Position numbers and translations under genes: made by a program. Shown in pieces: positions 16,505 to 17,865 of a stretch of 32,000 nucleotides of DNA. Position 1 is the stretch's first letter. The number at the start of each line of letters is the position of its first letter. The notes under the pieces were generated by a model. The model saw only the letters and a list, made by a program, of their open reading frames with translations. It was not told the origin of the DNA and did no database searches. Source of the DNA: Ferroglobus placidus DSM 10642 (GTDB taxonomy: Archaea; Halobacteriota; Archaeoglobi; Archaeoglobales; Archaeoglobaceae). The stretch is from positions 420,001-452,000 of the forward strand of contig NC_013849.1 in NCBI RefSeq assembly GCF_000025505.1, given 5' to 3'.

Positions 16505-16692
16505 GAGGTTAATCAAAAAATGAACCCGGGGTTAATTAAGATTTTGAACCCGGGGTTAATTAACCCAGTTAATTTACCGGGGGTTAATCAAGGATAATGA
16601 ACCGGGGGTTAATTAACCGGGGGTTAATCAAAAAAATGAACCCGGGGTTAATTTACCAGAGTCAATTAGAGATAATTTACCGGGGGTTACTT
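16505..16692 (+). repeat. GGGGTTAAT iteron cluster 2 (about 7 good and 3 degenerate copies)
   Basis: GG(A/G)GGTTAAT occurs at 16507, 16528, 16552, 16579, 16604, 16619 and 16644. Degenerate copies are AGTTAAT (16567), GTCAATT (about 16661) and GGGGGTTAC (16682). Spacing alternates between about 13-15 and 23-25 nt. The extended unit is GATAAT(G/T)(A/T)ACC(G)GGGGTTAAT(T/C)AA. Confidence 0.85.
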
Positions 16693-16789
16693 AAAGGAGG
16701 AGAATGTGTTACAGAAGTTGAATTGTGGAGAATAAGAAATTCGAAAGACCAAAAGACAGATATTCTACAAAATCTCAAATTAAACAAGC

Positions 16790-17338
16790 ATGAGAGGAGA
16801 GGGAGTAAAAGTCAGCTCTTTATCATTTGCAATGGGATGGATAATAGCGATGGTGTTGCCTTTTCTTTCAGGACTTAGCAGTACTGCAGCCTATTTGCTA
16901 CCAGTATGGTTCTTAGGAATCCTTCTGCTGAATATTCCAGCGAAAATAGTGTTCTTCGCCATAGTAAGCTACGCCACGGTCAATATCACAACTTTGTTAA
17001 AACTATCTCCGGAAGAGAGGACATCGATAGGTGAATCGATCGCCAGGCACAAAAAAGTAATCCTGCCAATTACAATATCAGCGTATATAGATTTCATACT
17101 TCTCCTTGCTATTAGCTCCAAGTTATGCTCTCTCTCGTCTGCCGGGTTGCTGATTCCACTTGTCTGGTATCTGATCGAGGACTGGCTAATCAGGAGAGAC
17201 TACTGGTATCTGGTTCCATCCACTCTGGTTGGACGAACCCTCATCAGATTAACGGGGCTAAAGTCAGAGAAGGTTTCTACAAACTATTTACCTGGCATCG
17301 TATTTTTGCCCGGAAAACTGCAGTGGATGAACCTGTAA
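16790..17338 (+). CDS. Integral membrane protein (about 4-5 TM), unknown function
   Basis: 182-aa ORF with hydrophobic segments (WIIAMVLPFLSGL, LLPVWFLGILLL, IVFFAIVSYATV, ILPITISAYIDFILLLAI, LLIPLVWYLI). No clear Shine-Dalgarno site, so the start is uncertain. The 3' end overlaps the convergent wHTH gene by about 50 nt. Confidence 0.6.
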   Translation: MRGEGVKVSSLSFAMGWIIAMVLPFLSGLSSTAAYLLPVWFLGILLLNIPAKIVFFAIVSYATVNITTLLKLSPEERTSIGESIARHKKVILPITISAYIDFILLLAISSKLCSLSSAGLLIPLVWYLIEDWLIRRDYWYLVPSTLVGRTLIRLTGLKSEKVSTNYLPGIVFLPGKLQWMNL

Positions 17339-17530
17339 AGAAAAAGAAACAGGACCAAAATTTCTAAGTTTGGCCTCAAGCCTCTCCAGGGGCCGCCTTG
17401 TAGTTGACCATGGAATTCCCGTTATTTCTGAAAGCTGTTTGATCGTATAACTCTGTATGGTTGGGGAGTTCTCCAAAGCTTCTTGCAAGATCTCATCCAG
17501 GCTCTTCCTTTTCCTGTTTTTCCTCGCCAT
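17288..17530 (-). CDS. Small helix-turn-helix DNA-binding protein
   Basis: ARKNRKRKSLDEILQEALENSPTIQSYTIKQLSEITGIPWSTTRRPLERLEAK fits an HTH/wHTH pattern. The start is ATG at 17530, or GTG at 17539. A perfect 18-bp palindrome lies 15 nt upstream. Confidence 0.6.
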   Translation of the reverse strand: MARKNRKRKSLDEILQEALENSPTIQSYTIKQLSEITGIPWSTTRRPLERLEAKLRNFGPVSFSLQVHPLQFSGQKYDAR

Positions 17531-17544
17531 AGCAACCACTTCTT

Positions 17545-17562
17545 GTGATTGATATCAATCAC
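17545..17562. promoter_or_regulatory. Perfect 18-bp palindrome (candidate operator of the adjacent HTH gene)
   Basis: GTGATTGATATCAATCAC is its own reverse complement. An extra GTGATT half-site lies at 17565-17570. Confidence 0.6.
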
Positions 17563-17684
17563 AAAGTGATTAAAAATCTTTTTAAATTTTTCGGTAAAAA
17601 AAGAAGAAAGAAAGAGACTGGCCGGATTCTCGCAGTACCGTGTCTCAGCGCTTTGAACAAACGGGCCGGAAAAATTCAAGATGA

Positions 17685-17865
17685 TTTACTCGGGGTTAAT
17701 TAAAGATAATATACCGGGGGTTAATTAACTAGGAGCAATCAAGGATAATGTACCTGAGGTTAATTTACCAGGGGTTAATTTACCCGGGGTTAATCAAGGA
17801 TAATGAACCGGGGGTTAATTAAAGAAAGATAAAGAAAGATAATTTACCAGGGGTTAATTAACTAG
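17685..17865 (+). repeat. GGGGTTAAT iteron cluster 3 (7 good and 1 degenerate copy)
   Basis: Copies read ctcGGGGTTAATtaaag, accGGGGGTTAATtaac, (taGGAGCAATcaagg), cctGAGGTTAATttacc, aGGGGTTAATttaccc, GGGGTTAATcaagg, accGGGGGTTAATtaaag and accaGGGGTTAATtaac. The orientation is the same as in clusters 1 and 2. Confidence 0.85.

Follow-up and report, generated by a model that had tools for sequence, protein, structure and literature searches.

Short repeated binding sites packed into arrays are known from plasmid iterons and from repeat-array centromeres. Two iteron clusters flank a gene in P1 (incC/repA/incA) and in F (incB/repE/incC), and RK2 oriV is a further case. Among the centromeres, R1 parC has 10 repeats of 11 base pairs (bp) that are bound by ParR, pB171 parC1 and parC2 flank parAB, and pSM19035 (omega heptads) and pSK41 (parC) are other examples. 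Eight to ten packed sites per array are the format of such iterons and centromeres (R1 parC, pB171 parC1/parC2, P1 incC/incA, F incB/incC) and not of ordinary operators. Integrated relatives of Thermococcales plasmids are known. In the archaeal pNOB8 AspA-ParB-ParA system, the small winged helix-turn-helix (wHTH) protein AspA binds a palindrome that precedes its own gene and serves as the centromere, and spreads; SegAB is a chromosomal partition system. For the Thermococcales plasmids pTN2, pP12-1, and pT26-2, an origin is predicted in the largest intergenic region, which abounds in direct and inverted repeats (PMC2926602). Described here are three arrays of about 22 iteron-like repeats in a 32,000-nucleotide stretch of the Ferroglobus placidus DSM 10642 chromosome (NC_013849.1, positions 420,001 to 452,000). 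This stretch is called the window, and all coordinates refer to it.

The repeat unit and its three arrays

In the 32 kilobases (kb) of the window, the motif GGGGTTAAT has 15 exact copies, every one on the + strand; shuffles that preserve dinucleotides predict 0.19. If as many as two mismatches are allowed, ACCNGGGGTTAAT matches about 20 + strand sites, which are confined to three clusters. A 20-nucleotide weight matrix built from 18 good sites recovers exactly 18 sites in the whole window (25–34 bits). All of them lie within 13358–13440, 16520–16694, and 17684–17862, and the matrix finds no sites outside the three arrays, either in the window or in the 6.5 kb of contig L008 that extend beyond it. 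Four degenerate units were seen by eye (starting at 16501, 16563, 16655, and 17728), for a total of about 22. The extended consensus of these 22 units, aligned by eye, is ATT(T/G)(T/A)ACC-N-GGGGTTAAT(T/C)AA. A preliminary description, made from the letters of this DNA, had counted about 17 good and 5 degenerate units, in line with the present count. The cluster coordinates, single-strand polarity, and spacing that it reported are all borne out by the pattern and weight-matrix scans. The clusters are listed below.

13359–13440, + strand: iteron cluster 1, 4 sites (ACC starts 13362, 13377, 13400, and 13423).
16498–16694, + strand: iteron cluster 2, 10 sites (strong: 16524, 16548, 16576, 16601, 16616, 16640, and 16679; degenerate: 16501, 16563, and 16655).
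17685–17865, + strand: iteron cluster 3, 8 sites (strong: 17688, 17713, 17752, 17767, 17782, 17807, and 17846; degenerate: 17728).

All three arrays are intergenic. Cluster 1 lies, with many other repeats, in a 3.3-kb stretch (11350–14650) without a convincing open reading frame (ORF), in a genome that is otherwise compact. Cluster 2 is located between a gene for a 94-amino-acid lipoprotein-like protein and Ferp_0495. Cluster 3 has the 3’ end of Ferp_0496 on one side and the region upstream of a wHTH gene on the other.

The unit is 19–20 nucleotides in length and is a near-palindrome, TTWACC-NGG-GGTTAA, which becomes a perfect odd palindrome around the central G when N is C. Of its two halves, the right one hardly varies and the left one is weaker; the polarity is that of a strong and a weak half-site in constant order. 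On the reverse strand, the matrix gives these sites no more than 12–25 bits, so the shared polarity is real. Units either abut, with a start-to-start spacing of 15 nucleotides (13 once), or are separated by related linkers of 9–10 nucleotides, with a spacing of 23–25 nucleotides; one spacing is 39 nucleotides. Information content is 1.3–1.7 bits at core positions, 0.2 at N, and 0.1–0.6 in the linkers. As estimated from the site alignment, the cores are about four-fold better conserved than the linkers. Cluster 2 has a single-strand folding z of −3.1, which is expected for palindromes and uninformative.

The favored reading, to which we give a probability of roughly 0.35, is that the arrays are binding sites for a dimeric protein and are the iteron- or centromere-like remains of a decayed mobile element. 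Because the core is palindromic, the cores are better conserved than the linkers, and the units are strictly intergenic, the units may be, or may recently have been, dimer binding sites. The contrast in information content fits selection on a dimer-binding core and not the uniform decay of a satellite. Each unit would offer a 15–19-bp near-palindrome, (A)TTWACC-NGG-GGTTAA(T), of a type that dimeric sequence-specific proteins bind. Abutting and spaced units would load many dimers side by side into an extended nucleoprotein complex. The three arrays would then be cis-acting multi-site binding platforms, and complexes at three nearby places could pair or loop with each other. Such a mode of working would be like that of plasmid iterons or centromere-like partition sites (copy control, pairing, segregation).

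Blocks of 34–49 nucleotides are shared between clusters at 97–98% identity, linkers included (16568–16616 with 17774–17822, and 13359–13392 with 17764–17797). The sequences flanking the arrays were compared between clusters and have nothing in common. Because blocks are shared and flanks are unrelated, the arrays themselves appear to be the maintained unit. Degenerate copies are found at the left edges of arrays or come second where two units abut. Higher-order periods of 39–40 nucleotides and 94 nucleotides were found by Tandem Repeats Finder. By their sequence, the arrays show the pattern left by concerted evolution, through block duplication or gene conversion, and they would grow and homogenize by these routes.

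Much of this anatomy would also suit a minisatellite, whether neutral or selfish. In this account, one palindromic site, or a two-site unit of 39–40 nucleotides, would have been amplified by slippage or unequal recombination within a decaying, repeat-prone stretch, and the array would later have been split by inserted gene patches and have no present function. Duplication yields uniform polarity. The higher-order unit and the 94-nucleotide period, the near-identical multi-site blocks, and the placing of the degenerate copies fit this account, as do the foreign patches between the arrays, the at least five other irregularly spaced short-repeat families of the surroundings, and the failure to find a partner gene or conservation elsewhere. 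The account is nevertheless doubtful, although it comes next in likelihood. It does not predict cores about four times better conserved than linkers or strictly intergenic arrays, and a 15–19-bp palindrome, typical of dimer sites, is unlikely to arise by chance as the seed of a satellite (six matched pairs have a probability of about 4^-6).

Genes between clusters 2 and 3

Clusters 2 and 3 bracket exactly two genes, as first described. These genes and the associated features are as follows.

16752–17354, + strand: 603-bp patch, 96.7% identical to Logan contig L141, carrying Ferp_0495 and its 38-nucleotide upstream region.
16790–17338, + strand: Ferp_0495, four-transmembrane membrane protein of 182 amino acids, within the patch.
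17288–17530, − strand: wHTH gene, 80 amino acids (WP_048086377.1), with family homology limited to residues 1–55 (approximately 17366–17530).
17543–17564: perfect 22-bp palindrome TTGTGATTGATATCAATCACAA, 13 nucleotides upstream of the wHTH ATG.

The 990 bp between the clusters consist of (left to right) 57 nucleotides of unplaced origin, the 603-bp foreign patch, an 11-nucleotide junction, approximately 215 bp of wHTH gene and operator, and approximately 105 nucleotides of unplaced origin. In the runs that carry the wHTH gene, short-read (Logan) assemblies stop inside clusters 2 and 3; one such contig (L006) corresponds to 16587–17815. On L141, the patch lies downstream of a Fic gene, a different upstream ORF runs into it in another frame, and the iterons and the wHTH gene are both absent. 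L141 begins with a GGTTCGAATCC-type motif that is by eye a tRNA 3’ end; ARAGORN calls no tRNA on this contig. Since L141 has the membrane gene without the wHTH gene or iterons, a conserved pair of membrane protein and wHTH is ruled out.

Homologs of the wHTH protein in metagenomic contigs are 75–92% identical over the first ~55 residues. They are encoded upstream of an AdoHcyase gene in ordinary chromosomal neighborhoods, or within virus-like contigs. No iterons were found at the homolog loci, either with the exact pattern or with the weight matrix. The palindrome is present upstream of the gene in two independent lineages: it is identical in contigs L017–L020, and near-identical and directly upstream in L012. 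Because it is conserved upstream of homologs at iteron-free loci, the palindrome, and not the iteron, is the predicted operator of the wHTH family. A perfect palindromic operator had already been proposed for this gene, and it is the sequence at 17543–17564.

All homologs end in G-L-V-E-P-Y-E-x-G-R-A-K-I-Y-R-L-K, which forms the wing. The F. placidus protein departs from them after residue 55, at approximately 17366, and its last 25 codons are the antisense strand of the membrane-gene patch. Judged from this alignment, it is a truncated, fused copy that has lost the wing. The adjacent wHTH protein is ruled out as the iteron binder by its own palindrome at iteron-free loci and by the loss of the wing. 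The preliminary description had joined the iterons and the HTH/membrane gene pair into one module. This does not hold, as the two genes are unrelated patches and neither is linked to iterons elsewhere.

The wHTH family is small. Its members are 70–80 amino acids in length, have the recognition helix IPWTTTRWHLERLE, and are paired with the 22-bp palindrome. In several metagenomic archaeal contigs, the gene is directly upstream of the AdoHcyase (SAH hydrolase) gene, and the family may be a conserved regulator of methyl-cycle genes. A comparison of the wHTH protein with phage and plasmid collections found nothing.

The positions of these genes bear on a further explanation, in which the arrays are operators and a repressor or activator coats them to control neighboring genes. 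The targets would be two secreted proteins (453 and 94 amino acids), Ferp_0495, and transcription that continues from Ferp_0496 into the wHTH gene. Palindromic sites are what archaeal HTH, Lrp, or TrmB-type regulators use (abcde-N3-edcba, boxes of 13–15 bp), each array is intergenic and precedes + strand genes on the + strand, and wHTH and ribbon-helix-helix (RHH) regulators are encoded nearby. The details make this explanation unlikely. Eight to 10 sites per array far exceed known archaeal operators, and no single site stands at any other promoter in the 32 kb. The Ferp_0495 patch brings its own conserved 38-nucleotide upstream region, and cluster 2 ends 57 nucleotides before the patch. Cluster 3 is downstream of one gene and 150 nucleotides upstream of a promoter that has its own operator, and 1.2 kb separate cluster 1 from the next convincing gene.

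Candidate binding proteins

Three further genes near the arrays were considered. The first two are candidate partners of the iterons.

18595–20031, + strand: Ferp_0497, 478 amino acids, with an N-terminal wHTH (residues ~60–120), long helices, a low-complexity middle, and a C-terminal domain.
10630–11049, − strand: 139-amino-acid protein, RHH by eye, with a weak PHROG match to a transcriptional repressor.
17944–18498, − strand: Ferp_0496, 184 amino acids, transcribed divergently from Ferp_0497.

If the favored reading holds, the binder would be a protein other than the adjacent wHTH, and we infer that Ferp_0497 is the best local candidate. Its best PHROG matches are weak, cover the wHTH only, and lead to replication initiators, lambda-O-like ones among them (E 7e-7 to 1e-4). 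In Pfam and NCBIfam it matches generic wHTH families, at or below the cut-off, and against PDB sequences only insignificant matches were obtained, among them AspA of pNOB8 at E ~0.8–1. The single-sequence AlphaFold model (pLDDT 50) is too poor to use. No relatives of Ferp_0497 were found in a search of 5.8 billion proteins, in which low-complexity words narrowed the candidate set, or in viral contigs or plasmids. The RHH-like protein, 2.3 kb left of cluster 1, is the second candidate DNA-binding partner.

Ferp_0496 belongs to a family of all-beta proteins of about 150 amino acids, with 92 cluster representatives at 50% identity. Its AlphaFold model is confident (pLDDT 88.6). It matches no Pfam family and has no significant Foldseek match in PDB or BFVD.

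Comparison with described systems

The likeness to the iteron plasmids P1, F, and RK2 is in the arrays, which there consist of 4–10 direct copies of 17–22 bp in one orientation. The Ferroglobus arrays likewise hold direct repeats in one orientation (22 units of 19–20 nucleotides). As in P1 and F, two arrays bracket a short gene segment, with a third array nearby in the present case, and part of the spacing (23–25 nucleotides) is close to two helical turns. The differences are in the units and in the genes. The Ferroglobus units are near-palindromic and often abut at 15 nucleotides, and no equivalent of a DnaA box or of the archaeal origin recognition box (ORB) accompanies them. No Rep_3-type or other initiator is encoded between or beside the arrays, where the bracketed genes are unrelated patches, and Ferp_0497 has matches at the level of the wHTH only. 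The present arrays are part of a chromosome, that of a hyperthermophilic archaeon. An AT-rich stretch is approximately 900 nucleotides from cluster 1, and only short A/T runs lie beside clusters 2 and 3.

12050–12500: AT-rich stretch, 28–35% GC, within the ORF-poor 11350–14650.

Repeat-array centromeres resemble the present arrays in their many packed repeats, along which a small dimeric protein would assemble as a continuous filament. Arrays can flank a small operon, and small RHH or wHTH proteins are encoded near the Ferroglobus arrays as well. Arrays are present and no par operon stands beside them. There is no gene for a ParA-, ParM-, or TubZ-type NTPase, and no small protein that would recognize the sites is encoded beside the arrays: the adjacent truncated wHTH is predicted to recognize a different, conserved palindrome, and the RHH-like gene is 2.3–7 kb from the arrays. 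Known archaeal centromeres (pNOB8, SegAB) have one or two palindromes, compared with 8–10 sites per array here, and no ParA or SegA was found; the only tie to AspA is the weak, non-significant PDB match of the Ferp_0497 wHTH noted above.

The closest archaeal analogy appears to be the repeat region of pTN2, pP12-1, and pT26-2. As in F. placidus, these hyperthermophilic euryarchaeal replicons combine a large ORF-poor region of direct and inverted repeats with a GC-skew switch (PMC2926602). Their repeats lie directly upstream of a recognizable replication cassette, with a primase-polymerase or helicase (PMC2926602). No such cassette is detectable here. The island proteins have no match in plasmid or phage collections.

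Two other classes of repeat differ in layout. In contrast to a CRISPR, the units abut or have related linkers of 9–10 nucleotides, and no leader or cas context lies beside the arrays. Unlike Tn7- or Mu-like transposon ends, the clusters share one orientation, and no transposase domain was found. On partner genes, membership among iteron replicons or par centromeres fails. The likeness proposed is confined to how the arrays would work.

Searches for partner genes and related arrays

The larger ORFs of the window were searched with Pfam, PHROGs, and NCBIfam, each ORF against at least one of these libraries. Several results weigh against a binding array of the iteron or centromere kind. The tested ORFs of the 32 kb yielded no Rep, primase, helicase, ParA/ParM, Orc1/Cdc6, integrase, or transposase, and a Pfam-annotated gene list for a further 6.5 kb on the right adds no such gene. 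A ParA-type Walker A motif is absent from all ORFs of at least 90 amino acids. The matches of Ferp_0497, the best candidate, are confined to the wHTH and appear to fall below curated thresholds. A homologous array was found in no other species-representative genome, in no viral contig, and in none of the metagenome matches listed, so that comparative support for a function is missing; nor does either bracketed gene seem to be iteron-linked elsewhere. Other short-repeat families share the region, and a local tendency to generate arrays could explain the iterons. Finally, the spacings of 15, 24, and 39 nucleotides are not multiples of the helical repeat.

Other searches agree with these results. 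No Pfam, NCBIfam, or PHROG match to a TubZ-type NTPase was obtained in the window ORFs tested. The ORB or mini-ORB motif (TCCANTGGAAA-like) has one match with one mismatch, against 3.6 expected, at 5616 and away from the arrays. A strict two-unit pattern was absent from 2.9 million viral contigs and, among 185,579 species-representative genomes, gave five chance or tandem matches, all in bacterial metagenome-assembled genomes (MAGs) and none in other Archaeoglobi. The genome scan, which bears on dispersed repeats of the MITE or REP kind, yielded no F. placidus locus; even the window is missing from its output, presumably because it is masked. A looser pattern gave at least 120 matches in metagenomes, mostly GGGTTAACCC-type repeats of unrelated organisms, and is too permissive. 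The weight matrix found no sites over the loci of relatives. As far as these sequence scans reach, the arrays appear unique to the F. placidus locus. A literature search on Ferp locus tags and F. placidus integrated elements found nothing, and exact look-ups of the 182- and 1665-amino-acid products added no further context.

The preliminary description had noted that no Rep, ParA, or Orc/Cdc6 gene was visible, and the domain searches agree. Its proposal of a replication or segregation module stands in part. The arrays are real, dense, and in one orientation, their cores are conserved, and their context is mobile-like; no replication or partition gene accompanies them. Since the defining partner genes were not detected and no array of this type turned up elsewhere, a role in replication or segregation is an analogy.

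Two metagenomic arrays were seen in passing. In contig L036 (5380–6000; also in L134 and L138), there are approximately 20 direct copies of GTCACCAGGGGTTAAGCCTTTGCT, which shares a 12-nucleotide core, ACCAGGGGTTAA, with the Ferroglobus unit. This array lies between two unannotated genes of 400 amino acids, one with a weak DUF7747 match, and the genes of the three contigs gave no Pfam or PHROG clue. It is either a coincidence or a distant analog. In L002 (1230–1295, − strand), a Deltaproteobacteria MAG, four tandem copies of CCCGGGGTTAATTGTGAGA occur just upstream of a gene; here the sharing of the core is chance.

The surrounding island

The arrays would belong to an approximately 10-kb patchwork island of decaying, mobile-element-derived DNA. 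Its features, in addition to those above, are as follows.

Ferp_0491 to Ferp_0499: island on the F. placidus chromosome, placed by exact protein look-ups.
11071–11346, + strand: Ferp_0491, 91 amino acids, matching only positions 190–255 of the 257 of a PHROG family.
11657–11741, + strand: C-rich direct repeat, left copy, with the shared 18-mer core CCCTCCAACATCCAAACC.
13766–14117, + strand: imperfect inverted repeat, left arm, with four copies of GAYGRTGATAYGAGTCCAC at 13889, 13951, 14025, and 14098.
20916–21099, − strand: imperfect inverted repeat, right arm, with two copies of GAYGRTGATAYGAGTCCAC at 20917–20935 and 20989–21007.
21747–21830, + strand: C-rich direct repeat, right copy, 45 nucleotides upstream of the tRNA-like remnant.
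21875–21970, + strand: degenerate tRNA-like sequence, Thr(UGU)-like by eye, with D-arm, T-arm, and CGGCACC end.

The two C-rich direct repeats are 76% identical over 89 nucleotides (E 1e-10) and enclose approximately 10 kb with all three clusters. They may be the boundaries of an old insertion. Inside them are the arms of the inverted repeat, which enclose approximately 7 kb with clusters 2 and 3. The 19-nucleotide motif GAYGRTGATAYGAGTCCAC has six matches against 0.01 expected, and the arms are laid out like the ends of a transposon that carry several binding sites, or like those of an invertible segment. The ~7 kb between them yielded neither a transposase nor an invertase.

The tRNA-like sequence has a 4-nucleotide insertion in the anticodon loop, an 18-nucleotide duplication in the T-loop, and five of seven acceptor pairs. 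It was rejected by ARAGORN, with introns allowed, and by Rfam at E ≤ 1. It may be the remnant of an integration site or target. Ferp_0491 looks like a C-terminal gene fragment with, by eye, a SLOG/DprA-type Rossmann domain. Because of the gene fragments, foreign patches, flanking repeats, and tRNA-like remnant, the island looks like degraded, repeatedly rearranged DNA derived from mobile elements.

At least five further short-repeat families, irregularly spaced, occur in 11350–14650. They include C-rich CCCTACC arrays, TCAACCGCTGCA (approximately 25 copies, spaced at 12, 15, 18, or 22 nucleotides), TTAGCTTTTTTGGAGAGGGCG (approximately five copies), and GTCAGGGA-like G-rich repeats. GATGATACGAGTCCAC is also among the short-repeat families of the island.

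This mosaic of direct and inverted repeats with a tRNA-like remnant also suggests that the arrays could be hot-spots of recombination or insertion, serving as arm-type accessory sites or as landing pads for patch exchange. Patch boundaries lie 57–105 nucleotides from arrays (16752 compared with 16694, and the end of wHTH homology at approximately 17580 compared with 17685). They are nonetheless outside the arrays and have no common sequence, no integrase, transposase, or recombinase domain was found, and the arrays are all direct repeats, unlike transposon ends. Hot-spots are therefore improbable.

The ORF-poor stretch has some features of a replication origin. It includes the AT-rich sequence and a local GC-skew minimum at approximately 12.9 kb, and gene orientation diverges around it, from the − strand at 6.8–11 kb to the + strand beyond 14.6 kb. 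Window GC is approximately 49%, compared with a genome GC that we take to be approximately 44%. That the arrays are species-specific origin-recognition boxes of the F. placidus chromosomal oriC is, however, very improbable. No ORB or mini-ORB motif and no orc1/cdc6 gene are present, the sites are all direct and not inverted around an unwinding element, and the motif pair occurs in no other species-representative genome, other Archaeoglobi included. The surrounding genes are orphans or fragments and not conserved core genes.

Other observations were made in the window. A 250-nucleotide region at 21285–21535 is 67–71% GC and forms five or six long hairpins, whose CUC loops are each closed by a C-G pair (CCUCCGG motif). 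Its minimum free energy is −163 kcal/mol, with z = −7.1 on the + strand and −5.5 on the − strand, and it is without an Rfam match. A 36-nucleotide piece of it (21362–21397) is repeated, inverted, at 13907–13944. The region may be a novel structured RNA of a hyperthermophile. Rfam reported nothing at the gathering threshold over the whole window, nor at E ≤ 1 over 11–22.5 kb.

The recognizable genes of the window lie on either side of the island, Big_7 surface proteins on the left and Csx3, DUF6744, bpMoxR, and VWA-type genes on the right. On the left (30–6508), two large surface proteins of 493 and 1665 amino acids are made of approximately 11 Big_7 Ig-like repeats, which at the DNA level are 60–90% identical with periods of approximately 310–350 nucleotides. 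On the right (27064–30657, continued in L008), a stand-alone gene for Csx3, of the ring-nuclease family, is followed by DUF6744, bpMoxR AAA+ ATPase, VWA, and DUF2201 genes. This stretch is a MoxR-VWA type conflict-system neighborhood.

Significance

To our knowledge, no iteron-type origin or repeat-array centromere has been experimentally characterized in Archaeoglobi, and few have been in any hyperthermophilic euryarchaeon. A bolder version of the favored reading, which we consider quite unlikely, takes the arrays as the working cis site (origin control, centromere, or pairing) of an unrecognized integrated Archaeoglobi replicon with the orphan Ferp_0497, or as landing pads for cassette exchange. 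Landing pads of that kind, belonging to a new cassette-exchange system, would account for the foreign patches next to the arrays.

The present value of the analysis is a clean negative. The module of iterons plus HTH dissolves into unrelated patches, and the arrays are an orphan feature of a degraded island. If Ferp_0497 is the factor, the locus would be an iteron or centromere system with a new family of initiators or centromere-binding proteins. If the arrays bind a specific protein, they would provide a compact, testable cis element, useful for Archaeoglobi vectors, and possibly a new archaeal family of DNA-binding or partition proteins.

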